From: a virus
Taxonomy: Duplodnaviria > Heunggongvirae > Uroviricota > Caudoviricetes
Length of the DNA stretch: 11,007 nt
IMG/VR virus record: IMGVR_UViG_3300029577_000220
Location: 1 to 11,007 of that record
Reading direction: 5' to 3' (one strand)
The notes below the pieces were generated by a model that made no database searches, had not been told where the DNA came from, and worked only from the letters and a program-made list of their open reading frames with translations. Shown one piece after another: positions 1 to 11,007 of this stretch (positions are counted from its first letter, which is position 1; the number at the start of each line of letters is the position of its first letter). The position numbers and the translations under genes were made by a program.

Positions 1-1505
1 TGGTCTCTCATCCTTCTCCACTGCTGTACAAAATATAGTCTTAGCGTGGGATAATTTCCGTTTTCCAAGCGGACCCCTTTTTGTCCTCCATTCGCCCTGC
101 AAACAGGGTAGCCAGTTGGCCGATAATCAGAAGGTGAGACGCTCATAAGCTCTTTGCTGATGGTGGCCGACAGTGCGTCTTCGGTCATTTCACCGATTCC
201 GTCTTCCATCTCGTCGAGCGCCTTTAGCGCCTCCTCCAGAGTCATTTCATCCGGCGCAGGAACAAAGCCAGACTCACTGTCTTTGGGCACTTCCGCACCA
301 TCTTTATTTTCTTTGCCTTCGACGTCTTCTTCAGTTTCCCCACGATCAGTATCGGAGTCCTCACCGCCATCACCATCGATGCCAGAGCCATAACCATCAG
401 AATCATCGGTATCTTCGCGAATACCATCGCCAGGTCTTGGAGCGCCAGTGCCATTGCTGCCATCATCATCGGTGTCAGAGTCACTTGATTTCATGCCGAT
501 AGCATCGGATTCTGGGGTGTCTCCTGACTCTTCGTGGCCTGCTTCTGTATATTTACTTTCTGTATCACTAATATCTTTAACGTGTGTAGGTAAGTCCTTA
601 TCTAATGAATCAGGCAAATCGGAATCCCCAGAATCTTCCTCTTCTGATGCATCATCTTCTCGTTCTTCCTTGTCATCGCCTTCGCCTTTGGCAGGCTTAG
701 ATGCAGAGTCACCATGAGACGGCTCGTCACCTGATTCTGGCGTTTCCTCGGACTCGTCTTTGCTCTCCGACGGCTTTCTGGCAGATGATTTAAGTTCTGG
801 TAATTTGCCCTCTGGCTTGTCTTTCATATCCTGCATGATTTGGGCTATAGCAGCAGCGACCTTCACGCAATCCTCAGTGTTCGACATATTGCGAACGGCC
901 ACGTCTATACCATGCTCCTTTAGTAAGGCTACCGGCCTCTCGATAAGGCGCCAGTGTTCTTCCATAAAATCGATGAAGGGGCTTTGTCCATCCCAGGCGC
1001 GGACGACCGGGCAAAGGAAGAATTTCAAAAACAATTCACGCTGGTCTCCGTGACAGGCTAAAACCGCTTCTGGTACTTTATTCCTGAAGTATTTGTCGAT
1101 AACCAGACTCTGTGTTGCAAGTAAATTACGCCGGGTTCCGTTAAAGACCTGCCCCATTCTGCGTTCAATAAAAACGTCTTCCAGCGCATTCCAAAGCCCC
1201 GTAGACGGAGCCTTTCCTCTTTCGCGCATCTGCATTGCGACTTTCGGTTCAGTAAAGAGAATATGGGCCACCTCATGGTCGAGAAAACCACGCACTGCGT
1301 TCATGAGGGTTGGCGACGCGTCGTCCGGTATAGATGGGATGTTTACCAGCACTGGTTCGCCGCGCCGGTTATAGCGGACATATGCTTCATTGCCTCGTTC
1401 TGCAACAGGTATTTGTTTACCTGAAAGCATCGCTACAACTCGTTTTACACAGTCGCGAAAATCCTGCACCTCTTTCAGTACAGCTTTGGTGGTTTTTTTG
1501 GACAT
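1..1505 (-). CDS. Large protein with N-terminal globular region followed by a ~200-aa D/E/S/G-rich acidic low-complexity linker; architecture resembles CobT-like (cobaltochelatase CobT / vWA-associated) proteins. Start ATG at 1503-1505; 3' end lies beyond the window start, so ~501 codons are in the window.
   Basis: Minus-strand frame set by ATG 1503-1505 is open to position 3 (translated by hand at both ends: MSKKTTKAVLKEVQDFRDCVKRVVAMLSGKQIPVAERGNEAY ... SPSDYRPTGYPVCRANGGQKGVRLENGNYPTLRLYFVQQWRRMRD). AAGGGA Shine-Dalgarno-like sequence ~8 nt upstream of the ATG. The Ser-rich plus-strand ORFs in the track (154..717) are antisense shadows of the acidic repeat region. Family assignment is from architecture only. 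Confidence 0.6.
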   Translation of the reverse strand, partial: MSKKTTKAVLKEVQDFRDCVKRVVAMLSGKQIPVAERGNEAYVRYNRRGEPVLVNIPSIPDDASPTLMNAVRGFLDHEVAHILFTEPKVAMQMRERGKAPSTGLWNALEDVFIERRMGQVFNGTRRNLLATQSLVIDKYFRNKVPEAVLACHGDQRELFLKFFLCPVVRAWDGQSPFIDFMEEHWRLIERPVALLKEHGIDVAVRNMSNTEDCVKVAAAIAQIMQDMKDKPEGKLPELKSSARKPSESKDESEETPESGDEPSHGDSASKPAKGEGDDKEEREDDASEEEDSGDSDLPDSLDKDLPTHVKDISDTESKYTEAGHEESGDTPESDAIGMKSSDSDTDDDGSNGTGAPRPGDGIREDTDDSDGYGSGIDGDGGEDSDTDRGETEEDVEGKENKDGAEVPKDSESGFVPAPDEMTLEEALKALDEMEDGIGEMTEDALSATISKELMSVSPSDYRPTGYPVCRANGGQKGVRLENGNYPTLRLYFVQQWRRMRD

Positions 1506-1558
1506 TAGAATTCCCTTGTTGTTAAAACAATTTGTTTTCTGATGTGCGTAATTTATCA

Positions 1559-1591
1559 CTGTACGAACAGGCATCTAATCTGTTCGTACAG
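1559..1591. promoter_or_regulatory. Perfect 12-bp inverted repeat CTGTACGAACAG-N9-CTGTTCGTACAG in the 5' leader/promoter region of the 1..1505 gene; candidate operator or leader stem-loop.
   Basis: Arms 1559-1570 and 1580-1591 are exact reverse complements; located 54 bp upstream of the start codon at 1505. Confidence 0.4.
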
Positions 1592-1605
1592 GCGCTAGAG
1601 AGGAT

Positions 1606-1618
1606 GGGAGGGGGGGGG
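1606..1618. repeat. Homopolymeric G tract (GGGAG followed by 8 G) between the stop of the 1619..1831 ORF and the start of the 1..1505 gene.
   Basis: Direct reading of 1601-1620: aggatgggag ggggggggtt. Confidence 0.6.
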
Positions 1619-1831
1619 TTAAATTGTGCGGACGGCTACTGAACCGCAGCCGGTATTGATGAGAGTGAAGCACTTGCCCTTTAGCTCAAAGATGTATGCG
1701 GTTGCGTCTTTCATGTCAAGTAACAAAGACTTTGTTGGCAGTTCAGTGAGTATGGCTGCTGCCCCATCATCGTCAATTGAAATCGTATGTCCGACCTCAA
1801 GGGCGATCAAATTAGAAGTTATTTTTTTCAT
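1619..1831 (-). CDS. Hypothetical small protein (70 aa), divergent from the HTH regulator gene.
   Basis: ATG at 1829-1831 (minus), weak GGATGA SD-like sequence upstream; shares a 247-bp AT-rich divergent intergenic region with the 2088..2477 gene. No recognisable domain. Confidence 0.3.
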   Translation of the reverse strand: MKKITSNLIALEVGHTISIDDDGAAAILTELPTKSLLLDMKDATAYIFELKGKCFTLINTGCGSVAVRTI

Positions 1832-2087
1832 TTCATATCATCCAACTGAACACGTAAATACCTTGCAATACTACTACCTATTGTATCAATACGGAATACT
1901 TATGTATCAAATACAACTTAGTTTTAAGTTCTTAAATGAGTTATTTTTTAGATAGTTGTCTATTAATGAAGCCTTTTGCGGTCAGTAAACCTATGTAAAA
2001 AAATAGATAAGTCTTTACAACACTAACCTTTGATGTAATATCAGTAAGCACTTACCAAATAAAATCAAAACACGCAGGTTGATAATT

Positions 2088-2477
2088 ATGGCTACCAACG
2101 AAACAAAAGAAGCTAAAGTAAGTCGCTACGCTGCTTACATTGACGCTTTAATCGCGATTTCTCCGAAAAGCCAGGCGACCATCGCGAAAGAAGCAGGCTA
2201 TAAAAACCCTAACAATCTTTCACTTATCAAGAGCGGCAAAATCCCGCTTCCGATCGACAAGGTCAGAGCGTTGGCTAAAGCATTGGATGCCGATTCGGTC
2301 CGATTGATGCTAATGGTGCTGGAAGAGCGTCATCCAGAGCTGTTAGCGTTTTTTCGCGACGAAGGCACAGCCCCTCTGACTAAAGATGAAAAACTAGTTC
2401 TGGAAGCCTTCCGTCGACGTTTCGGTGACCAACGTGGTGCGTCGGAGCGGGTTGTTGAGGCAATCAAGTCGCTATGA
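2088..2477 (+). CDS. XRE/Cro-CI-type helix-turn-helix transcriptional regulator (129 aa from ATG 2088; the track ORF begins at an upstream in-frame TTG at 2079).
   Basis: HTH_3-like segment SQATIAKEAGYKNPNNLSLIKSGKIPLPIDKVRALAKALDAD; AGGT ~9 nt upstream of ATG 2088; AT-rich upstream region; convergent with the integrase and overlapping its 3' end by 6 bp. Confidence 0.65.
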   Translation: MATNETKEAKVSRYAAYIDALIAISPKSQATIAKEAGYKNPNNLSLIKSGKIPLPIDKVRALAKALDADSVRLMLMVLEERHPELLAFFRDEGTAPLTKDEKLVLEAFRRRFGDQRGASERVVEAIKSL

Positions 2478-3575
2478 GAAATTTACACGGATTAGCTCAG
2501 TAGCGAGTCGATCTCCCTTGAACTTATGATCTATCTCCTCTAAATCCTGTTTCTCTACGATTGATGCGATGTACGCCGAAAAACTGTTTAAGGCGTCTCG
2601 CATCTCGTCTATATAATCGTGTCGATCGTATACTCGATCTATCCCCTCAAGACTGTGGTTCATAATTTTGCGGGATACCTCCTGACTTATGCCTAACGCG
2701 GGGAAGTAACTACGCGCAGTACGACGCAAATCTCGGGGAGTAAATGGCTCAAGCTCCATCAACTCTGGACGTTCTAAAATCCTTCTCAACGCCTGTGATA
2801 TGGCCACCTTAGACATTGGCACATCCTCACCCTGTTTCTTGTTTGAAGGAACAAGCCACTGGCTGCCTTTTCCGTATTTGATCAGCTCCTCAACACATTT
2901 GCGCATTAGCGGGCTTAATGGTAACGAGTGCTGGCGAGCCGATTTATTCCTCGTTCCTTGATTCCATAAATTATATTCGAGGTTGAATTCTGATCTTTTA
3001 GCTCGGAGCACTTCATCTGGTCGTCTGGCCGCTACAAGGCATAATCTGGCCGCCCACTTTGTACCCTCACATACGTTGAAGTAGTCCCATACATTCCAAA
3101 AGACCCAGACCTCTGCGTCGGTCAGTTTGCGCTCGCGCGGCGTGGGCTTCGCGCCACCGGCTACTCTGTTAAGCGACATATCGTTCAATGGGGATGTATC
3201 AATTAAGCCCTGAAATGCACACCAACTGAGAAACTGCTTCATCAGCGAGAACACACGTCTGCCCTGGACGATCTTGCCCTCAAGTATTAATGGGTTCACC
3301 AGCTGGTTGACTAAAACCCTACTAATATCACTTACTTTTACTTCACAGATATGCGGCATTACATGTATCAAAATACAATGAACAGCTATTTCAGGTCGAC
3401 GTCTCGTTATCAGCAAAGATAAGCGAGTGAATAACATGAATGCGGAAGAAAACGACATATCACCGTCGAAATTGGTGGTCGACACTGCTGACAAACCGGA
3501 AGCGCGTTCGAGATACTCGATGGCTTCTCTAGAGGTGTTTTCTGCTGCGCGTGCTTTATCAAAAGTGTTTTTCAT
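2472..3575 (-). CDS. int: Tyrosine recombinase/integrase, P4-like family, lacking the N-terminal arm-binding (DUF4102-type) domain; possibly a truncated remnant.
   Basis: C-terminal catalytic region FTPRDLRRTARSYFPALGISQEVSRKIMNHSLEGIDRVYDRHDYID matches the integrase box II / R..Y architecture; core-binding region ISRVLVNQLVNPLILEGKIVQGRRVFSLMKQFLSWCAFQGLID matches the P4-integrase core-binding pattern. The region upstream of 3575 (3576-3874) is AT-rich and non-coding, so no arm-binding domain is encoded. Confidence 0.85.
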   Translation of the reverse strand: MKNTFDKARAAENTSREAIEYLERASGLSAVSTTNFDGDMSFSSAFMLFTRLSLLITRRRPEIAVHCILIHVMPHICEVKVSDISRVLVNQLVNPLILEGKIVQGRRVFSLMKQFLSWCAFQGLIDTSPLNDMSLNRVAGGAKPTPRERKLTDAEVWVFWNVWDYFNVCEGTKWAARLCLVAARRPDEVLRAKRSEFNLEYNLWNQGTRNKSARQHSLPLSPLMRKCVEELIKYGKGSQWLVPSNKKQGEDVPMSKVAISQALRRILERPELMELEPFTPRDLRRTARSYFPALGISQEVSRKIMNHSLEGIDRVYDRHDYIDEMRDALNSFSAYIASIVEKQDLEEIDHKFKGDRLATELIRVNFS

Positions 3576-3672
3576 AGTCCACTCACTGAGTGAAGCCTGT
3601 TTTTACTGTATTTATAAACAGTATGTTAGGCCTAAGTTTTGTATGATCAACAGTAAAATAGACTGTTTTTGA

Positions 3673-3707
3673 AAATGATTCCATACCTTACAAGTATGGA
3701 ATCATTT
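3673..3707. promoter_or_regulatory. Perfect 14-bp inverted repeat AAATGATTCCATAC-N7-GTATGGAATCATTT in the integrase upstream region; candidate operator/recombinase-binding site.
   Basis: Arms 3673-3686 and 3694-3707 are exact reverse complements; the arm core GTATGGAATCAT recurs at 5326-5337 and 6346-6357. Confidence 0.45.
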
Positions 3708-3874
3708 ATATAGCTTACGTAAATTCTGAATAAATTATGTAGACAAACCATCTTAAACGCTAAATAGTAAAAAGCGCCTAATAACGCCAACTTTGGAATG
3801 CCATCTGAGCCAGATTGATGAGAATGATTTGTTAGAAGAAAAAGAATGATGAAGAAGATGACGATCGCTAAAGT

Positions 3875-4291
3875 TCAGCTAGAATGGAAACCTTCTGCGA
3901 CTTCAGCGAAGTAGCTGAGCAACCTAGTATCTCTTGCTGGCATACGATCGTGAGCTGGAGTGACTAGCCCCATCAGCAAAAAACGCCCGCTATCCCACAT
4001 GTGCTCGGTATAAACGAGATAGTGGTTTGAGGTTCGGTTGTAGTTCTCTTGCCTTGCGTTCCAGGTAAGCTGGAAATGCAAATTGACGTGAATATGCTGG
4101 ACATTAGCATCAACGGCGAACGGCGGGAAGTCAAATGGCGCATCTCGTCCAAGAAGATTAGATGGTGCGCCAGTTGATTTGTAAGTAATGAACTCGGATT
4201 TGAGCTGACTTTCTAGGTCAGGGTAAACGACAAAAGTGGGCTGAAAAAAATCATCCCACGTAACTTGACTGTATTCAGCCGTTAATGCCAT
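3875..4291 (-). CDS. YafO-family toxin (ribosome-dependent mRNA interferase type), 138 aa.
   Basis: Block-wise resemblance to E. coli YafO recalled from memory: FITYKSTGAPSNLLGRDAPFDF vs FISYKRDGVLPDIFGRDALYDD; VQHIHV vs VAHIHL; RTSNHYLVYTE vs RTNDEAHLVYCQ; FLLMGLVTPAHDRMPARD vs WLLIAILKPEPHKLARD; AEGF vs AEAF. Start ATG 4289-4291 overlaps the upstream gene's last codons by 10 nt. Confidence 0.7.
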   Translation of the reverse strand: MALTAEYSQVTWDDFFQPTFVVYPDLESQLKSEFITYKSTGAPSNLLGRDAPFDFPPFAVDANVQHIHVNLHFQLTWNARQENYNRTSNHYLVYTEHMWDSGRFLLMGLVTPAHDRMPARDTRLLSYFAEVAEGFHSS

Positions 4292-4830
4292 TTAGCCGCA
4301 GCCTTGTTGCCAGTCTCTAATAGATGGTTCATGGCTAAAAGGTTGACACCAGAGTCACGCACTACAGAAGTGCGTGTAATCTGATCAATCAGATTGAGAT
4401 AGTTTTTGGTCGCAATACTGACCATTTTAATAGCCTTAAAAAACGCAAACTCAACAGTGTTTTTTTCGTAAGACATGATGACGTCTTTTTCAGGTAACAT
4501 CAAAACAAAAGATTCTGCGATACCGGCTACATGAATAGTTTGATTCTTAATTTCTTCCGCTACTTTGATAGCAGCAAAGAAGTCAGTGTCAGCATAATGA
4601 GCAAGTTCAGCGCGGCTTGAACGCAGTTCTTTAGCCAATTCATTGAGAGCAGCTGTAAGATCACTGATGTCGGTTTTGTTGACTCTAGCGCCCATCTCAT
4701 AAACCCGTTCTACAATCGTAGGCTGACACGCAACCGCTTTGGGTTGCGGCTGGATACTGGCAAGAACCAGTGCCACTGCTGCCTGCAAATGCTGGATTTT
4801 AAATTTCACGATAGACTCCATAATCGTCAT
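4282..4830 (-). CDS. Hypothetical 182-aa protein translationally coupled to the YafO-like toxin; putative cognate antitoxin/partner, not YafN/RelB-like.
   Basis: ORF with ATG at 4828-4830; stop TAA 4282-4284 overlaps the start of the YafO-like gene; no recognisable RelB/DinJ/YafN-like sequence and roughly twice the size of YafN. Confidence 0.6.
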   Translation of the reverse strand: MTIMESIVKFKIQHLQAAVALVLASIQPQPKAVACQPTIVERVYEMGARVNKTDISDLTAALNELAKELRSSRAELAHYADTDFFAAIKVAEEIKNQTIHVAGIAESFVLMLPEKDVIMSYEKNTVEFAFFKAIKMVSIATKNYLNLIDQITRTSVVRDSGVNLLAMNHLLETGNKAAAKWH

Positions 4831-4908
4831 TTCTCGACGAAGCGTAGCATTCTACTACTGAACTTAACTATAAGCTAAAAAAAGTTGGTTGCATATGCGA
4901 CTTGATAG

Positions 4909-4929
4909 CAAAAAGGGGCCGAAGCCCCT
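4909..4929 (-). terminator. Rho-independent terminator downstream of tRNA-Asn (minus-strand sense GGGGC-UUCG-GCCCC followed by UUUUU).
   Basis: Plus strand 4910-4932 aaaaaggggccgaagcccctttg: 5-bp GC stem, UUCG tetraloop on the minus strand, T-run on the minus strand (A-run 4910-4914 on plus). Confidence 0.55.
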
Positions 4930-5005
4930 TTGGATTTTGCGCTGAAAAAAGTGTTGCTACGATGCTTAGAAGCAATGGTTAAAAAACGTCTGCCGTGTCT
5001 ATCAC

Positions 5006-5080
5006 AGCGCTGAACGGTCTGGCGACATTTGCGGAGTCTTTCGTTCGGACGGTGGTGGCGAATCCAAACCGTTCAGCGCT
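5006..5080. other. Long hairpin: 13-bp perfect inverted repeat (AGCGCTGAACGGT / ACCGTTCAGCGCT) enclosing 49 nt, immediately 3' of the tRNA; possible structured RNA or degenerate tRNA-like element.
   Basis: Arms 5006-5018 and 5068-5080 are exact reverse complements; the enclosed sequence does not fold as a cloverleaf by hand. Confidence 0.35.
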
Positions 5081-5084
5081 ATGT

Positions 5085-5159
5085 TGGCGATGGTGGGTGG
5101 ACTCGAACCACCGACCAGTTGATTAACAGTCAACCGCTCTACCACTGAGCTACACCATC
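5085..5159 (-). tRNA. tRNA-Asn (anticodon GUU), 75 nt with encoded CCA.
   Basis: Minus-strand sequence GATGGTGTAGCTCAGTGGTAGAGCGGTTGACTGTTAATCAACTGGTCGGTGGTTCGAGTCCACCCACCATCGCCA folds by hand: acceptor GATGGTG/CACCATC, D-stem GCTC/GAGC, anticodon stem GTTGA/TCAAC with loop CTGTTAA, T-stem GGTGG/CCACC with loop TTCGAGT, discriminator G, CCA. Confidence 0.85.
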
Positions 5160-5408
5160 ATTTTCGCGGCGGTACTAGCTTATGGACAACCAGGCAGCCA
5201 GAAACTTTCCCGTAACTTGCACTTTACGTTAGTGCCAGACGAGGTATGTGGCTCGCTCATATGAGCGAAGATCTCGAATCTTTCTCGGTGGTTGATTGCC
5301 GTTAGATTCTTCGATCTTATTGGATGTATGGAATCATACATGTTGTGAAGCCAGGGGCAATAAAGGCAACAATGTTTTCACTAGAGGGTTAATTAATCCT
5401 GCTTTCAC

Positions 5409-5518
5409 AACGTTGAGATCACTGAACCGATTAATGTTCAACCCAACATATTGATCAGTCGCTACAGCTATGTGGAATCGCCTGTATGATTTTAAGAAAA
5501 ATCAGTGATCTCAACGTT
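5409..5518. repeat. 17-bp perfect inverted repeat (AACGTTGAGATCACTGA ... TCAGTGATCTCAACGTT) separated by 76 bp in the non-coding region between the tRNA and the small-gene cluster; candidate structured ncRNA, origin-like element or MITE-like remnant.
   Basis: Arms 5409-5425 and 5502-5518 are exact reverse complements; no convincing ORF in 5160-5900. Confidence 0.4.
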
Positions 5519-5883
5519 ATGTGCTGACTAACCAAGTCAGCCGGGTTACGTCGCCGCTTTTAACCCAAGTATAAACGACATAAGTAATGGAAATGACGTA
5601 ACAGAATGGACGGTCAGCTGAAACCGGGATGGGTGAATGGAATGATGAAACCAACCGCCCATTCTGTTACTTCATTGAATGGGGCATGGATGGTGCAATA
5701 TGCCCTATTCTGCGTTCTGCAATCACACTCGCTCAGTGTGTCCCATTTTGGTGACGAGGCTGGAAACTGACCTCGCTGGTGTTTGGCTTCTTAGGCTACT
5801 GCCAGGTATGCATCTTCGTTTGCAGTTATATTTAACGTTCAAACAGTCGCATCTCAACGAAAACAAAGTGATCTTATACATAT

Positions 5884-5909
5884 TAGATAAGTAAGTAAAT
5901 ACTTATCTA
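5884..5909. promoter_or_regulatory. Palindromic site TAGATAAGTA-AGTAAA-TACTTATCTA overlapping the stop of the 5903..6208 gene; shares the 11-mer ATAAGTAAGTA with sites at 10811-10821 and 8582-8592 (reverse complement).
   Basis: 10-bp arms 5884-5893 and 5900-5909 are reverse complements; the 11-mer recurs at two other loci, both 5' of minus-strand genes. Confidence 0.4.
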
Positions 5910-6208
5910 TCTGTGATGCGTTTAGTTGCTATCTTTTTGATCAGGCTCCCCTTTTGTTCCGAAGTTCTCATGATGATGGCGGTAAAACGCTTCGCTTGAA
6001 TAGTGATAGTTTCGTTTTCCTTGAGTTCGCCGTAATGCGTCTCTAACAGGGACCCCAGACGCCACAGACCGTCGTCTATGCGTTTATGGCTGGCGAATCT
6101 GATCAGCAGTAGCTTTACGATTAACTGACCAATGTAAAAGGCAAATCCGAAGCCGGCCGCCACAAGGTAGGTTGCCAGCCACCAGTCGAAGGAAGTCAAA
6201 TTGCTCAT
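5903..6208 (-). CDS. Hypothetical small membrane protein (101 aa).
   Basis: ORF with ATG 6206-6208; hydrophobic segment WWLATYLVAAGFGFAFYIGQLIVKLLLI; start overlaps the stop of the upstream 50-aa ORF (ATGA). Confidence 0.5.
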   Translation of the reverse strand: MSNLTSFDWWLATYLVAAGFGFAFYIGQLIVKLLLIRFASHKRIDDGLWRLGSLLETHYGELKENETITIQAKRFTAIIMRTSEQKGSLIKKIATKRITDR

Positions 6209-6357
6209 TTTCGCACTCCCGTCTCGTGAACAACCCGATACACACGCTTACCGACACGAAGTGTTTTGGTTTGCAGTTCCTGCTGGACCAGGGCGCGGCA
6301 GATTGCGAGGCCGAGGCCCACGCCACCAGTAAAAGATAAAATGATGTATGGAATCAT
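6205..6357 (-). CDS. Hypothetical 50-aa protein with a hydrophobic N-terminus (MIPYIILSFTGGVGLGLAICRALVQQ...); not in the supplied ORF track (below the size cutoff).
   Basis: Hand translation: ATG at 6355-6357 overlaps the TGA of the 6357..6569 gene (TGATG), and its own TGA (6205-6207) overlaps the ATG of the 5903..6208 gene (ATGA). Confidence 0.3.
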   Translation of the reverse strand: MIPYIILSFTGGVGLGLAICRALVQQELQTKTLRVGKRVYRVVHETGVRK

Positions 6358-6569
6358 CAGTGCGCCCCCGCCTCAGTCAATTGCTGCAACAACAAATAAC
6401 CTTTTTCAGTCAGTTGATAGTTCTCAATACATCCCTTTGGAGAAACGTTGGCGACAAGATTCATGCGCTCCAGTTTGGCTCTGGTCTTCGGCTTCCAGTT
6501 GGCGTAGAACTCCTTCCACTTGCTGATTTCACGCAGGGTTTCCTTCTCTCGTTTACTTAACATGCTCAT
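6357..6569 (-). CDS. Hypothetical small soluble protein (70 aa), Lys/Glu-rich, possibly DNA-binding.
   Basis: ORF with ATG 6567-6569; embedded in the overlapping gene chain downstream of the ligase. Confidence 0.45.
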   Translation of the reverse strand: MSMLSKREKETLREISKWKEFYANWKPKTRAKLERMNLVANVSPKGCIENYQLTEKGYLLLQQLTEAGAH

Positions 6570-6729
6570 CCTTAATCTCCTTCAGTGTGTCCGTGATATC
6601 TACTATGCGATAAATACGACCTCGCCTTTGCATGACACCGGCTTTTACGTAATCGTGGATACAGCTGGACATAACCAGACTTCCGATAACAATGCCGACG
6701 ACTAAAAATACAAACATCCAGCCGAGCAT
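6553..6729 (-). CDS. Hypothetical 58-aa protein with an N-terminal transmembrane helix (MLGWMFVFLVVGIVIGSLVM...); not in the supplied ORF track.
   Basis: Hand translation: ATG at 6727-6729 shares one base with the ligase stop codon (TGATG); TAA at 6553-6555 lies inside the start of the next gene. Confidence 0.3.
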   Translation of the reverse strand: MLGWMFVFLVVGIVIGSLVMSSCIHDYVKAGVMQRRGRIYRIVDITDTLKEIKDEHVK

Positions 6730-8051
6730 CATTCTTTATCTCCAATACGATCTTCGGTATCTCGAAGACATTTAGGCCACTTCAGACGTGGATGACGCAA
6801 GCTACCATCTGGCGTTTTCTCATGGCAGTGAACCTCAACGATGCGTCCACGATACTTCTCCTGATTGTTCCAGATTTCATCCAGGTATTTATGCTTGATA
6901 CCGCTGGCACGAACGATGACGCCGTTCTCCAGACGAATCACTATCTTGCCTAGCGTATGCGCAAATCCAGAATCCGGATCGCCAGGCTCGAAGTCGATGA
7001 TTTCACCGTCTTCTGAATCCTCGTCTTTCAGCTTCCACCAGCTGCGGGTACGTTTGAACTCGTAAACTGAATCCGGATCTTTGCCCATCTCTCCCTCTTC
7101 ATTCTCGTCCAGTCGCTTCATGAAACGTTCGATGAAATCTTCGTGGCTATGGATGATGTAGAACGGATGAAGGTGGATATCTTGCGCATAATCTTCCACG
7201 CAAGTGTTGCGGAACAACGCCACCAGCATAGCCAGGCGCTCTTTCAGCTTCATACCGGTCTTCAGGTACTCTTTGCTTTTTGCTTGAGCACGCCACTCCG
7301 GTAAGAAGAAATCGAAAATGTGGTAAACGGCACCAATGGCTTTCACGTTCTTCTTACGAAGCGCCGACACTGACTGGTTGAATGTACCTGCAGTGCCCTC
7401 TCCATCGAAGAAGATGTGATTGAAGCCGGAGAGTCTGCCCCGCTCCAGCATGGCTGGTTTAAGGTGATCGAGTGACGTAATCGGATTGCCGGTGCGCGTC
7501 AGGAAATTGACCTCACCCTCGTCCACGATGACTTCGCAGATAACCCGGAGACCATCGAGTTTGAGACTGCCGATCATTGGCCACTTGGCCTTTGGATTTG
7601 GTTTAAATGGGTATTTGTCGCCTTTCTCCTTGTACGGAGACGCCAGCTGTACCTCAAACTTCGGAATTGGGTTTTCGAACACCTTGTTGCACAGGCTGAT
7701 GCCGACACCGGCTTTCGGATCTTTCAGCAGGAAGCGACGAAACACGTCCTGCCCGTCAGCGCACATCGAGGCAACGAGTGATTCGACAGCAGCAATAGCG
7801 ATGTTCCCGGTCAGTTCGCGCGCTGCCAGCTTCTCCAGCAGATCTACTACCTTCTGGTCGCTGGGTACGGAAGTATCGAGTGGCTCGGCCACTTTGTACT
7901 TCTTCACACCGAATCGAATGAATGGATTGAGCATTAGCGAGACCATGCTCTGTTCAAATTCATCCAGATTGGCCAGCGCCTCTTTCTTGGCGTTGGTTCC
8001 CATCGTTTTAATAGCATCCAGCTTGTGCTTTAGGGCGATCAGTTTTTCCAT
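6729..8051 (-). CDS. ATP-dependent DNA ligase, T7-like (phage-type), 440 aa, with an ~80-aa N-terminal extension.
   Basis: Nucleotidyltransferase motif I KLDGLR; motif III FFDGEG; motifs IV-V EGEMGKDPDSVYEFKRTRSWWKLK (compare T7 ligase EGLIIKDP...SGWWKMK from memory); C-terminal motif VI TPDGSLRHPRL...RD. GGAGG Shine-Dalgarno 9 nt upstream of the ATG at 8051. Confidence 0.9.
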   Translation of the reverse strand: MEKLIALKHKLDAIKTMGTNAKKEALANLDEFEQSMVSLMLNPFIRFGVKKYKVAEPLDTSVPSDQKVVDLLEKLAARELTGNIAIAAVESLVASMCADGQDVFRRFLLKDPKAGVGISLCNKVFENPIPKFEVQLASPYKEKGDKYPFKPNPKAKWPMIGSLKLDGLRVICEVIVDEGEVNFLTRTGNPITSLDHLKPAMLERGRLSGFNHIFFDGEGTAGTFNQSVSALRKKNVKAIGAVYHIFDFFLPEWRAQAKSKEYLKTGMKLKERLAMLVALFRNTCVEDYAQDIHLHPFYIIHSHEDFIERFMKRLDENEEGEMGKDPDSVYEFKRTRSWWKLKDEDSEDGEIIDFEPGDPDSGFAHTLGKIVIRLENGVIVRASGIKHKYLDEIWNNQEKYRGRIVEVHCHEKTPDGSLRHPRLKWPKCLRDTEDRIGDKE

Positions 8052-8085
8052 TAGTGTTTAACCTCCATCGGTCGCTCGGGAGTTT

Positions 8086-8574
8086 TCATGTGTTTTCTTT
8101 GGTTGCTTCTTCAATGAGTGCCGCGTACACGTCAGTGACCGGCGCCAGTGAATCGGTGGGCTTGGTTTCGGATTTAGCAGGTTCTGTTTTCTTCGTGCGA
8201 TGAATAAGACTGTCAATTGTCGCGGTGTTTCGCTTCCGGGGGAGCGTTCTGGCATGGTCGTTTTGCTCTTCCACTTCTTTGATAAGTGAAGACATATCGA
8301 TGAAGTAGAGCTGTTCGTCTTTGCGGATCTCTTCGACCATCATTTTCAGTGCCTGACATTTACCAGCAGCAATAGCCGCAGCGCAGGACTGGAACGATGT
8401 AGCCGGGAGACGTTTTTCTTTATAGGCGAGGATCGTGTGTTGGCAGACTGTATAGCTGCAATGAGCCTCATGGCCGTTGAGCTTCACTTCCGGGCAGCGC
8501 AGCGAATAACCGTTGTTTCCGGAGATAGACGGGATTTTCGACAAATCTGTTCTTGTGGACATGCTTCTAACCAT
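8086..8574 (-). CDS. Hypothetical Cys/His-rich protein (162 aa), putative zinc-binding, immediately upstream of and co-oriented with the DNA ligase.
   Basis: ORF with ATG 8572-8574; segment CPEVKLNGHEAHCSYTVCQHT plus CAAAIAAGKC; 34-bp gap to the ligase start. Confidence 0.55.
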   Translation of the reverse strand: MVRSMSTRTDLSKIPSISGNNGYSLRCPEVKLNGHEAHCSYTVCQHTILAYKEKRLPATSFQSCAAAIAAGKCQALKMMVEEIRKDEQLYFIDMSSLIKEVEEQNDHARTLPRKRNTATIDSLIHRTKKTEPAKSETKPTDSLAPVTDVYAALIEEATKENT

Positions 8575-8599
8575 AATCTTGTACTTACTTATTAATCGC

Positions 8600-8627
8600 A
8601 GTTTAAAGAAGCCCCACGAGGGGGCTA
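8600..8627 (-). terminator. Candidate rho-independent terminator after the IS-interrupted gene (minus-strand AGCCCC-CUCGU-GGGGCU followed by a U-rich tail).
   Basis: Plus strand 8610-8626 agccccacgagggggct; the A-rich stretch on plus (8601-8609) gives UCUUUAAA on the minus strand. Confidence 0.4.
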
Positions 8628-8643
8628 AATGTTTTATCGAGGC

Positions 8644-9099
8644 TTACCAGGTCGCCCAGCCAGTCATTTTGTCCTGAGCAGCTTCGAACCGGTATGGGTC
8701 CAGTAAATCGTTGGTACGATGAACGGCGTAGGATTTGGCTTCTTGTTTAATCATGGGTAATTCGTTGGCCAGACGAGCCACTTGCCCTGCAAAACTGGCG
8801 AGTACTCCGTCACATGCCTGACCCACGTCGACAATGATGCGCACCAGGTCTAAGTCGCTGCGGCACATATCGCAGATAATGCCGTATTCCACCTCACGAA
8901 TGCGCTCAACGGCTTTTTTGATATCGCCACTGACCACCAATTCCAGCAAACCAGGTGGAGTTGTCAGATCTGTTACGCGCTCGGTAACTTCAGACTGTTC
9001 GACAATACTCAGGAACGCCGCGATGGACGGGTCATCCGCCACACCAGCTCTGACTTTGAGCGTGCGAAGAGTTGCGTCGACAATATCCTCAAACCGTTC
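8644..9099 (-). pseudogene. 3' portion (151 codons) of a ~270-codon gene interrupted by IS629; product unknown.
   Basis: The track ORF 8644..9042 (GTG start) extends in frame, with no stop, up to the IS boundary at 9099 (ERFEDIVDATLRTLKVRAGV ADDPSIAAF...). The frame is continuous with the fragment at 10410..10769 once the IS and one TTC copy are removed. Confidence 0.7.
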
Positions 9100-9153
9100 T
9101 GAACCGCCCCGGAAATCCTGGAGACTAAACTCCCTGAGAAAGAGGTAAACAGG

Positions 9154-9480
9154 ATGACTAAAAATACTCGTTTTTCCCCCGAAGTCCGTCAGCGGGCGAT
9201 TCGTATGGTTCTGGAAAGTCAGGATGAATATGACTCACAGTGGGCGGCAATTTGTTCCATTGCCCCAAAGATTGGCTGTACGCCGGAGACTCTGCGTGTC
9301 TGGGTTCGCCAGCATGAGCGGGATACCGGGGGCGGTGATGGTGGGCTCACCAGCGCTGAACGTCAGCGTCTGAAAGAGCTGGAACGTGAAAATCGTGAAC
9401 TGCGCCGCAGTAACGATATCCTTCGCCAGGCTTCCGCTTATTTTGCGAAGGCGGAGTTCGACCGCCTCTGGAAAAAATGA
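9154..9480 (+). CDS. IS629 transposase OrfA (HTH and leucine-zipper part), 108 aa.
   Basis: [23 protein letters not shown]... is typical of IS629/IS1203-group OrfA; ends ...LWKK* at the A6 run 9472-9477, the expected -1 frameshift window. Confidence 0.9.
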
Positions 9481-10367
9481 TGCCACTGCTGGATAAGCTG
9501 CGTGAGCAGTACGGGGTCGGACCGGTATGCAGCGAACTGCATATTGCCCCGTCAACGTATTACCATTGTCAGCAACAGCGACATCATCCGGATAAACGCA
9601 GTGCCCGTGCGCAGCACGACGACTGGCTGAAGAGAGAGATACAGCGCGTATACGATGAAAATCATCAGGTGTACGGTGTGCGTAAAGTCTGGCGTCAGTT
9701 GTTACGGGAAGGAATCAGGGTGGCCAGATGTACAGTGGCACGTCTCATGGCGGTTATGGGACTTGCCGGTGTTCTCCGGGGTAAAAAGGTCCGTACGACC
9801 ATCAGCCGGAAAGCCGTTGCCGCAGGCGACCGCGTAAACCGTCAGTTCGTGGCAGAACGACCTGACCAGCTGTGGGTGGCTGATTTTACTTACGTCAGCA
9901 CATGGCAGGGCTTCGTCTATGTGGCGTTTATCATTGATGTGTTTGCCGGATACATCGTGGGGTGGCGGGTCTCATCGTCTATGGAAACGACATTCGTGCT
10001 GGATGCGCTGGAGCAGGCGTTGTGGGCCCGTCGTCCGTCTGGCACCATCCATCACAGCGATAAAGGCTCTCAGTATGTGTCACTGGCCTATACGGAGCGA
10101 CTAAAAGAAGCCGGATTACTGGCATCAACAGGGAGTACAGGCGACTCGTATGACAACGCGATGGCTGAGAGCATCAATGGTCTTTACAAAGCGGAGGTAA
10201 TACACCGTAAGAGCTGGAAAAACCGTGCAGAAGTGGAACTGGCCACACTAACGTGGGTGGACTGGTATAACAATCGACGATTGCTGGGAAGGCTGGGCCA
10301 TACTCCTCCGGCAGAAGCAGAAAAAGCTTATTATGCTTCCATCGGAAACGATGATCTGGCAGCCTGA
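9477..10367 (+). CDS. IS629 transposase OrfB (DDE/rve catalytic domain), 296 aa; expressed as an OrfAB fusion by -1 frameshifting.
   Basis: rve-type motifs [58 protein letters not shown]; overlaps orfA by 4 nt in the -1 frame. Confidence 0.9.
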
Positions 10368-10409
10368 GTTCACAGATAAAACACTCTCCAGGAAACCCGG
10401 GGCGGTTCA

Positions 10410-10769
10410 TTCACCTTCATCGCACACAGTCTGATTGGTGTAGACAGTCTGATTAGTGTAGACAATGCGACCGTCGTACCATGCACCGATACTCACTTCG
10501 ACCGTTGCGTCTTTCATCTCGCGAGAGAACGCCACAAGTGCCGCGCGTTTCTGCTTAACACCTGACAACTCCGGGGACTCTCCAAAACGAACCCAGACCT
10601 GCATGTATTTCGAGCCTTCCGAAAGAGGTACGGTGCTCACGGACGTGGCGATATGCTCCAGTGCAGTTTGGATCGCCTCGTCGATAATCTTCTGGCGCTC
10701 TTCTGTATCAATTTCTACGCCGGATTTGTCGATGATGTCGCAGACTAACTTCTGAAATTCTTCTTTCAT
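10410..10769 (-). pseudogene. 5' portion (120 codons) of the IS629-interrupted gene; its promoter and RBS are intact.
   Basis: ATG at 10767-10769 with AGGAG 7 nt upstream; the ORF runs into the IS629 right end, where it meets a stop supplied by the IS terminal TGA (10407-10409). Confidence 0.7.
10428..10463. repeat. 18-bp tandem duplication (AGTCTGATTGGTGTAGAC / AGTCTGATTAGTGTAGAC) inside the interrupted gene, encoding VYTNQT twice.
   Basis: Units 10428-10445 and 10446-10463 differ at one position; in frame. Confidence 0.6.
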
Positions 10770-10809
10770 AGCAACTCCTGACTAACAGATGAAAATATTC
10801 TTTCAGAAA

Positions 10810-10831
10810 AATAAGTAAGTATCTACTTATT
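10810..10831. promoter_or_regulatory. Palindromic site AATAAGTA-AGTATC-TACTTATT in the promoter region of the interrupted gene; same motif family as 5884-5909.
   Basis: 8-bp arms are reverse complements; contains the 11-mer ATAAGTAAGTA; ~40 bp upstream of the start at 10769. Confidence 0.4.
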
Positions 10832-10861
10832 ATATCGGGCACAATAGTCTGCTATACGAAG

Positions 10862-11007
10862 AAGCCAGGCGTAAAAACTACTCGGATGCACATCCAGCAC
10901 CCGACAAAGCAGTCGGACAGGCCAGCAATAGGTGTTGCATTGACAGATTGAATCTACAACGGCTTTTTTTAATATGTCCCGTTCGTCGGTAACCCGCTTC
11001 AGCTCTT
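10862..11007 (-). mobile_element. Fragment of a second, different IS3-family element (OrfA C-terminus to OrfB N-terminus junction region); continues beyond the right window edge; inner boundary uncertain (between ~10833 and ~10865).
   Basis: Minus-strand translation ELKRVTDERDILKKAVVDSICQCNTYCWPVRLLCRVLDVHPSSFYAW shows the OrfA-type ...ILKKA and the OrfB-type LCRVL.V..S.(Y/F).W motif (compare IS3 MCRVLRVARSGWYTW from memory); A7 run at 10964-10970 lies at the expected frameshift window. Not IS629 (sequence differs from the in-window copy). Confidence 0.45.

Follow-up and report, generated by a model that had tools for sequence, protein, structure and literature searches.

The stretch of DNA analysed here (hereafter the window, 11,007 nucleotides) carries, from left to right, the end of a Tn3-family transposon relic, a truncated CobT-like gene, a small open reading frame (ORF), a transcriptional regulator, a tyrosine integrase, a YafO-family toxin with an overlapping ORF, a tRNA-Asn, an ATP-dependent DNA ligase and a complete copy of IS629 (Table 1). 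The protein encoded by the 70-aa ORF was found, letter for letter, in 1549 blocks of the assembly collection. The regulator and the integrase occur as a pair in pHCM2 and are absent from SSU5. The integrase region is flanked by 7-bp CGGACGG repeats and is missing in SSU5, which prompted the idea of a small integrative island inserted in tRNA-Asn, but this possibility was rejected, since pHCM2 has the trio of 70-aa ORF, regulator and integrase at the same place. For the 182-aa ORF upstream of the YafO toxin no family match was obtained in Pfam, PHROG or PADLOC, and PADLOC gave no defence-system match either for the CobS/CobT pair discussed below or for its neighbours. The IS629 copy contains rve and HTH_21 domains and the ALIL frameshift pseudoknot, is 99.8-100% identical to copies found in Stx phages, and several public assemblies contain the element at the same site.

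Table 1. Features of the window, with the strand and the basis of each assignment.
Feature	Position	Strand	Basis or remark
Tn3-family transposon relic end	1..77	+	tnpA 3' end and 38-bp terminal inverted repeat
Out-of-frame island of CobT C-terminal-domain DNA, 41 bp	78..118	-	left between the 662-bp deletion and the transposon end
Last authentic CobT-like codons, 446-463	117..170	-	end at deletion junction 117/118
Acidic linker, presumably disordered	171..833	-	codons about 225-445; composition
CobT-like N-terminal globular domain	834..1505	-	codons 1-224; Pfam PF06213 and AlphaFold2 model
HExxH motif	1263-1277	-	codons 77-81 of the CobT-like N-domain
70-aa backbone ORF, upstream of the CobT-like gene	1619..1831	-	same position in pEC21Z137-115K and pHCM2
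Regulator, 132 aa	2079-2477	+	PHROG 8 (transcriptional regulator)
Tyrosine integrase	2472-3575	-	Pfam Phage_integrase and PHROG integrase families
YafO-family toxin	3875-4291	-	Pfam YafO_toxin, E 1.1e-19
182-aa ORF, upstream of and overlapping the YafO toxin	4282-4830	-	
tRNA-Asn (GTT)	5085..5159	-	ARAGORN; Rfam tRNA, 76 bits; annotated at the same place in SSU5
ATP-dependent DNA ligase	6729..8051	-	Pfam DNA_ligase_A_M; PHROG 114, E 4e-124
IS629 (IS3 family), full-length, 1310 bp	9100..10409	+	splits SSU5_042 homologue; 3-bp target duplication TTC

Results

The CobT-like open reading frame

The CobT-like ORF lies on the minus strand, begins with an ATG at window position 1505 and is free of stops as far as base 3, so that 501 codons fall within the window. 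The initial annotation had described a globular N-terminus followed by about 200 residues rich in D, E, S and G, and the composition of the translated product bears this out: residues 1-224 are ordinary (D+E 12.5%), and they are followed by an acidic linker of 221 aa with D+E of 35%, D+E+S+G of 58% and a net charge of -55. The same annotation expected profile searches to return the CobT/vWA family, which turned out to be correct for the CobT half, whereas the vWA half is absent from this truncated copy. The whole window ORF matches Pfam CobT (PF06213) with 123.7 bits (E 1.3e-35), well above the gathering score of 26.1 used as cutoff. When searched separately, residues 1-230 still reach 96.3 bits (E 3e-27), whereas no Pfam family matched the acidic segment, so the family call is independent of the low-complexity part of the protein.

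PHROG 1576, a family of unknown function, also matches the window ORF (E 5e-176), but solely over profile positions 1-440 of 729, and no match to PF11775 (CobT_C/vWA) was found in the window ORF. The intact orthologue, on the other hand, matches PF11775 at E 1.4e-108 and has the MIDAS motif DLSGS at residues 585-589. Intact orthologues are 720, 742/743, 773 and 781 aa long, with linkers of different lengths, and are named either "cobaltochelatase CobT-related protein" or "porphyrin biosynthesis protein" in RefSeq. The window ORF gives no match to TIGR01651, the equivalog for cobaltochelatase CobT, and even the full-length orthologue, at 74.5 bits, stays far below the cutoff of 759. Therefore, the protein is best called CobT-related, as in RefSeq, rather than an established CobT.

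Phage-plasmid backbone

Comparison with a plasmid collection retrieved 28 records from E. coli and E. fergusonii (about 70-230 kb, many of them around 105-115 kb) that align with 80% or more of the window at about 99% identity. The E. coli plasmids of 105-115 kb are IncFIB and about 99.7% identical to the window, and genes for terminase, portal, capsid, tail, ParB, DnaE, primase and DnaB are found on these relatives. Phage SSU5 is 90% identical to the window over the 54% of it that aligns. The closest complete relative is pEC21Z137-115K, an IncFIB, non-mobilizable plasmid with dnaE, a CobS-like AAA ATPase, a 773-aa CobT-related gene, an integrase, a YafO toxin, a ligase, a primase and a DnaB-like helicase, and with terminase, portal, major capsid, tape measure, tail fibre and ParB genes elsewhere on the molecule. 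In pHCM2 the order is dnaE, CobS-like ATPase, CobT-like gene (720 aa), 70-aa ORF, regulator and integrase, then ligase, primase and DnaB. Both pEC21Z137-115K and pHCM2, which is likewise typed IncFIB, have ParB- and ParA-like genes; none lie within the window, and any phage structural and partition genes of the window's own element would be located outside it. The gene for the CobS-like AAA+ protein adjoins the CobT-like gene in pEC21Z137-115K, SSU5, pHCM2 and 9 of the 10 additional loci compared (L017-L026, all but L018).

These similarities support the assignment of the window to an SSU5/pHCM2-type phage-plasmid. Such a backbone had already been suspected from the CobT-like protein together with a ligase, a tRNA, a recombinase and IS629, and all of them were recovered, as an ATP-dependent DNA ligase, a tRNA-Asn, a tyrosine integrase and IS629; the YafO toxin fits the same context. 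Besides the CobT similarity and the synteny with pHCM2, the best nucleotide matches are SSU5-type phage-plasmids and not chromosomal islands or unrelated lytic phages. In enterobacterial phage-plasmids of the SSU5/pHCM2 type, the CobT-related gene itself is already known as a regular part of the backbone.

Deletion and transposon junctions

Authentic CobT-like coding sequence is restricted to window 117-1505 (codons 1-463), with one substitution, H94R, relative to the 773-aa orthologue, from which the reading frame diverges after residue 463. Window positions 117-1700 align with 12703-14284 of locus L001, and window 77-118 with L001 12001-12042 at 100% identity. The 662 bp at L001 12043-12704 are missing at window 117/118, with a microhomology of 2 bp at the junction. 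This deletion eliminates codons of about 464-684, and with them the start of the vWA domain and its metal-binding (MIDAS) motif DLSGS, and it shifts the frame because its length is not a multiple of three. The gene is interrupted once more, as the end of a Tn3-family relic lies 41 bp further on and replaces the rest of it; it is thus inactivated twice, by an illegitimate deletion and by the transposon end. The predicted product has 532 aa, compared to 720-781 aa in intact orthologues, with its stop 93 nt outside the window. Its residues 464-476 are an out-of-frame remnant of the original gene, and residues 477-532 come from the transposon end, read in antisense.

The last codons of tnpA (...VSHPSPLLYKI-stop) can be read directly from the sequence at window 3-38 and are followed, at window 40-77, by the terminal inverted repeat of 38 bp, which reads GGGGTCCGCTTGGAAAACGGAAATTATCCCACGCTAAG in reverse complement and follows the pattern GGGG...ACGCTAAG. 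Segments 100% identical to window 1-77 occur in many E. coli plasmids and in some chromosomes, annotated there as "Tn3 family transposase" pseudogenes, and no match to window 1-77 was found in the SSU5-like plasmids. Beyond the repeat, assemblies L027 and L029 contain an a/b hydrolase and a DMT/EamA transporter that are 99.9% identical to L003, a segment representing the transposon-relic cargo of other E. coli plasmids. These are the next genes beyond the CobT-like ORF in the window allele, and the retrievable flank (about 1.3 kb in L027 and L029) consists of transposon cargo only.

A different interruption was found in the assembly represented by L018, where a Tn1721-type element (MCP-like ORF, tnpR, tnpA, tetR and tetA, with the inverted repeat GGGGGAACCGCAGAATTCGGAAAAAATCGTACGCTAAG) cuts the same gene at another codon, leaving 491 aa.

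Recurrence in independent assemblies

Assemblies with the window arrangement were retrieved through exact-protein look-ups of the two ORFs that arose from the insertion of IS629. L030, a contig from a human-gut metagenome (ENA ERZ920233, run ERR1190801), is 100% identical over all 11,007 bases; L027, from the isolate assembly GCA_037638555.1, is 99.98% identical to the window, and L028 is 100% identical over window 23-11007. Both left junctions are spanned by four independent assemblies (L027, L028, L029 and L030), and the gene call at the CobT-like locus is 532 aa in L027 and L029. L030 continues past the left edge of the window by about 50 bp, and L027 and L029 by about 1.3 kb. The longest contig with this allele has 43 kb, of which the 20.4 kb retrieved as L027 end short of the virion region. 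Both junctions and the IS629 insertion are therefore real and recur in at least four independent assemblies. An exact search for the deletion junction returned nothing in species-representative genomes or IMG/VR, and the left junctions occur in no record of the plasmid collection or of 5,426 complete E. coli genomes, where all matches start at window base 77.

N-terminal domain, HExxH motif and partner ATPase

An AlphaFold2 model of window residues 1-230 (mean pLDDT 85.9) predicts a helix a1, three strands and eight helices, in the order described for the topology of CobT_N (preprint 10.64898/2026.07.21.739949). The model matches viral "cobalamin biosynthesis" and VWFA proteins in a viral structure library (E from 1.7e-7). 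Against the PDB, Foldseek with this model and phmmer with the N-domain sequence returned nothing, a 9-sequence profile (A1) returned nothing relevant, and a 20-sequence profile (A2) gave a weak match to the canonical CobT chain 9uka_G (E 0.017).

Since a first homologue search returned mostly short partial proteins, an exhaustive search of representatives was used to see the family, and 2381 CobT-like representatives were found at E <= 0.001. Motifs were counted in the 128 full-length sequences within the top 150 representatives. HExxH is present at about residue 70 in 127/128, a [LIVM]E[DN] motif follows 10-45 residues downstream in 121/128, and DxSxS is found in every one of the 128; the median peak of D+E in an 80-residue window is 50%. 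In the 20-sequence alignment (28-53% identity), D76, H77, E78, H81, E109 and D110 are invariant. The combination HExxH...E in the phage-type CobT-like N-domain is a zincin-like signature.

The CobS-like protein encoded beside the CobT-like gene in relatives belongs to AAA_5, with a Walker A motif GHTGTGKS and a Walker B motif VYLADE, and scores 85.5 bits against TIGR01650, for which the cutoff is 558.6.

Discussion

Our results indicate that window 1-1505 very probably represents the 5' two-thirds of a phage-plasmid CobT-related gene, present as an inactivated copy on an SSU5/pHCM2-type element. The 532-aa product predicted from it keeps the N-domain and an acidic tail but has no adaptor domain, and for this reason the truncated gene is most likely a pseudogene, although the remaining fragment could still be partly active, for instance by binding the ATPase. 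As a backbone marker, the degraded copy still identifies the element correctly. The window allele and L018 carry two independent transposon insertions in the same gene, which suggests that the CobT-like gene is dispensable for life as a plasmid.

An assembly chimera formed at a repeat, with the true gene intact, could in principle produce the structure seen at the left end, and two observations point in that direction: a further assembly, L011, ends exactly at the left edge of the window, 77 bp into the transposon, and L028 stops 22 bp short of that edge. Contigs that stop at or just inside a repeat are typical of assembly breaks at repeats. However, the deletion junction of the CobT-like gene is not at a repeat, and L027, L028, L029 and L030, one of them an isolate genome, all cross it, three of them reading past the left edge with 99.98-100% identity. 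Because independent assemblies share the junctions and two of them continue into the same cargo, a chimera is extremely improbable and we consider it ruled out. Accepting the truncation as genuine, it might also be seen as a gain of function, with the shortened product working alone as an acidic decoy of the DNA-mimic or anti-restriction type or as a free zincin-like domain. The frame is open for 532 codons, the tail has a net charge of -55, the N-domain keeps the invariant HExxH...E, and a 52-aa stretch gave a weak profile match to the acidic DNA mimic AcrIIA26 (E 0.0014). That similarity is short and borderline, though, and AcrIIA26 was not listed by Foldseek against the PDB; the match, obtained with the 20-sequence profile, is probably due to chance. 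Moreover, the last 69 residues of the product are out-of-frame or antisense transposon sequence, the vWA/MIDAS domain is kept in 128/128 full-length relatives, and two unrelated transposon insertions in one gene look like the loss of a dispensable gene. A gain of function is thus quite unlikely.

It must also be asked whether the gene encodes a true CobT subunit of a cobaltochelatase, that is, an auxiliary metabolic gene that would boost vitamin B12 synthesis together with the CobN of the host. Both the CobT and the CobT_C domains of Pfam are present in the family, a CobS-like gene is adjacent in relatives, and hijacking of CobN has been hypothesized for the viral cobST clusters of other viruses (PMC8651126). 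Against this, the full-length orthologue and its partner remain far below the cutoffs of their equivalogs, the parts of pEC21Z137-115K (84 kb) and pHCM2 (50 kb) that were examined show no annotated cobN, and the window copy is devoid of the domain that contacts CobN. The hosts also argue against it, as Salmonella uses CbiK and E. coli is not known to have the aerobic cobalamin pathway. Since no cobN accompanies the pair in the plasmid regions examined and E. coli would not offer this pathway, hijacking of a host CobN by a viral CobST is unlikely here, and a true cobaltochelatase subunit is a very unlikely identity for the protein.

Canonical CobT consists of an N-domain, a linker and a vWA/MIDAS C-domain; the N-domain has a peptidase-M48C-like fold and docks on the small domain of the CobS AAA+ protein, the linker is disordered and has about 90 residues, and the C-domain clamps CobN together with the N-domain (preprint 10.64898/2026.07.21.739949). 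In the intact relatives, a CobT_N-type N-domain, a long acidic, presumably disordered linker and a vWA/MIDAS domain are combined in the same way, beside a MoxR-class, CobS-like AAA+ ATPase and dnaE, within the replication module. If the solved CobSTN chelatase is a guide, the N-domain would dock on the ATPase and the vWA/MIDAS domain would grip a client. From the AAA_5 and Walker motifs of the partner and the roles of the canonical CobT domains, we infer that the intact CobS/CobT-like pair may act as a MoxR-type motor plus a vWA adaptor. Cobalt chelation is probably not what the pair carries out, given the absence of an accompanying cobN in the plasmid regions examined and the scores of both proteins, far below the equivalog thresholds. 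Given that the domain expected to grip the client is gone, loss of function is the most likely condition of the window copy.

The glutamate located 28 residues downstream of HExxH also allows the phage-type N-domain to be read as a putative active zinc metallopeptidase-like (zincin) module, a speculative reading that we regard as unlikely. If it were true, the widespread viral "CobS/CobT" pair would not be a chelatase but would use ATP to cleave or remodel a client gripped by the vWA-MIDAS domain. The fact that SSU5-like elements living as plasmids have lost the gene repeatedly would then point to a role confined to the lytic phase. In any case, the conservation of HExxH in the viral CobT-like family offers a cheap and testable lead on the phage role of this gene pair.

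Placing the window on a phage-plasmid affects how the remaining genes are interpreted, and the integrase, YafO module, ligase and tRNA should be read as backbone and accessory genes of a phage-plasmid and not as parts of a chromosomal island. The lineage is undergoing erosion by mobile elements, with IS629, a Tn3-family relic carrying metabolic cargo and, in addition, a deletion. The SSU5 supergroup of phage-plasmids, its IncFIB typing and the insertion of integrons and Tn3-like elements into its members have been described in the literature. The erosion seen here fits that published transposon traffic and suggests that an element living as a plasmid can do without the CobS/CobT module.

Comparison with known systems

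The closest counterparts of the window CobT-like protein are its orthologues SSU5_049, WP_000030420.1 from pHCM2 and WP_188003820.1 from pEC21Z137-115K. Residues 1-463 show one difference from the pEC21Z137-115K protein, the N-domain is about 94% identical to that of pHCM2, and the neighbours and the position beside replication genes are the same in the SSU5, pHCM2 and E. coli elements. The window copy differs from all of them in the absence of the C-terminal 310 residues, which comprise the vWA/MIDAS domain.

Canonical CobT (PDB 9uka chain G, TIGR01651, PF06213 and PF11775) has the same three-part architecture as the intact orthologue and the same type of AAA+ partner. Unlike canonical CobT, the phage-plasmid protein has a strongly acidic linker of more than twice the canonical length, it is found without a CobN context and its score is far below the equivalog cutoff. 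The N-domains differ as well, since the phage-type domain has the invariant HExxH...E, whereas the alignment in 9uka_G began only at "VEQARVE", downstream of the HExxH position.

A motor ATPase combined with a vWA-MIDAS adaptor is also the logic of the MoxR-class AAA+/vWA pairs NorQ/NorD, CbbQ/CbbO, RavA/ViaA and CoxD/CoxE, to which the CobSTN system has been likened (preprint 10.64898/2026.07.21.739949). A CobT_N-type domain is missing from adaptors of the NorD, CbbO, ViaA and CoxE type, for which clients are known or suspected. In the window copy the adaptor domain itself has been deleted.

The CobT-like gene

The N-domain encoded by the CobT-like gene carries the motif DHEVAH, which is followed 28 residues later by an ED pair, and D76, H77, E78, H81, E109 and D110 are invariant across 20 sequences of the family that share 28-53% identity. 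The HExxH core was present in 127 of the 128 full-length representatives found among the best 150 of 2381 family sequences. Judged from this pattern of conservation, the motif looks like a zincin-like metal site, in a family that carries a chelatase-subunit annotation. The segment NxxEDxfIE, in the same domain, received a short and borderline match (52 aa, E 0.0014) when the anti-CRISPR DNA mimic AcrIIA26 (PDB 9zq6_B) was compared with the family profile. AcrIIA26 was not returned by a Foldseek search of the PDB. This likeness is probably due to chance.

The acidic linker is polymorphic in length among the CobT-like orthologues. The whole protein has 720 aa in the phage-plasmid pHCM2 and 781 aa in the Salmonella phage SSU5, and E. 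coli plasmids encode versions of 742/743 and 773 aa; these differences are in-frame indels within the D/E-rich region. In the separate assembly L018 the gene is disrupted by a transposon near codon 508 (numbering of the 773-aa orthologue), leaving a called product of 491 aa. This is a second disruption, independent of the one in the window.

Features of the window and of related assemblies
Feature	Position	Content
Acidic linker	171-833	D/E-rich
ED pair	1176-1181	codons 109-110
NxxEDxfIE segment	~1164-1223	codons ~95-114
HExxH	1263-1277	codons 77-81
3.4-kb segment	1636-5042	70-aa orf, regulator, tyrosine integrase, YafO toxin and its upstream orf
Stretch from tRNA-Asn to next conserved gene	5160-5900	short ORFs only
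101-aa backbone ORF	5903-6208	RefSeq name 'C-type natriuretic protein' in SSU5 and E. coli plasmids
IS629	9100-10409	TTC target duplication
Disrupted CobT-like gene	L018 10326-20213	Tn1721-type tetracycline-resistance transposon
L027 right flank		DprA, 1558-aa helicase
L007 right flank		sucrose (scr) regulon, IS1, IS110
L028 right flank		QueC, deoxyribosyltransferase, HD protein, integrase
pEC21Z137-115K, corresponding right flank		fimbrial genes

Backbone, insertions and flanking cargo

The stretch of ~740 bp that adjoins tRNA-Asn is ~92% conserved with SSU5; none of its ORFs corresponds to a gene annotated in relatives, and the stretch matched nothing in Rfam. For the 101-aa ORF that follows, the sole family match was PHROG 4507 (function unknown), and its RefSeq name looks like a propagated misannotation. 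IS629 interrupts the homologue of SSU5_042 (270 aa), splitting it into ORFs of 132 and 120 aa, and since the identical insertion occurs in several isolate and gut-metagenome assemblies, it defines a lineage.

Assemblies with this exact window sequence become wholly divergent from ~266 bp past its right end (position ~7770 of L027, a contig of isolate assembly GCA_037638555.1), as seen also in assemblies L007 and L028, and this site is a cargo hotspot.

The 3.4-kb segment, missing from SSU5 in comparison with the window, is flanked by 7-bp CGGACGG repeats and ends ~35 bp 3' of tRNA-Asn. Because its first three genes (70-aa orf, regulator and integrase) are held at the same location in pHCM2, SSU5 has probably lost them.
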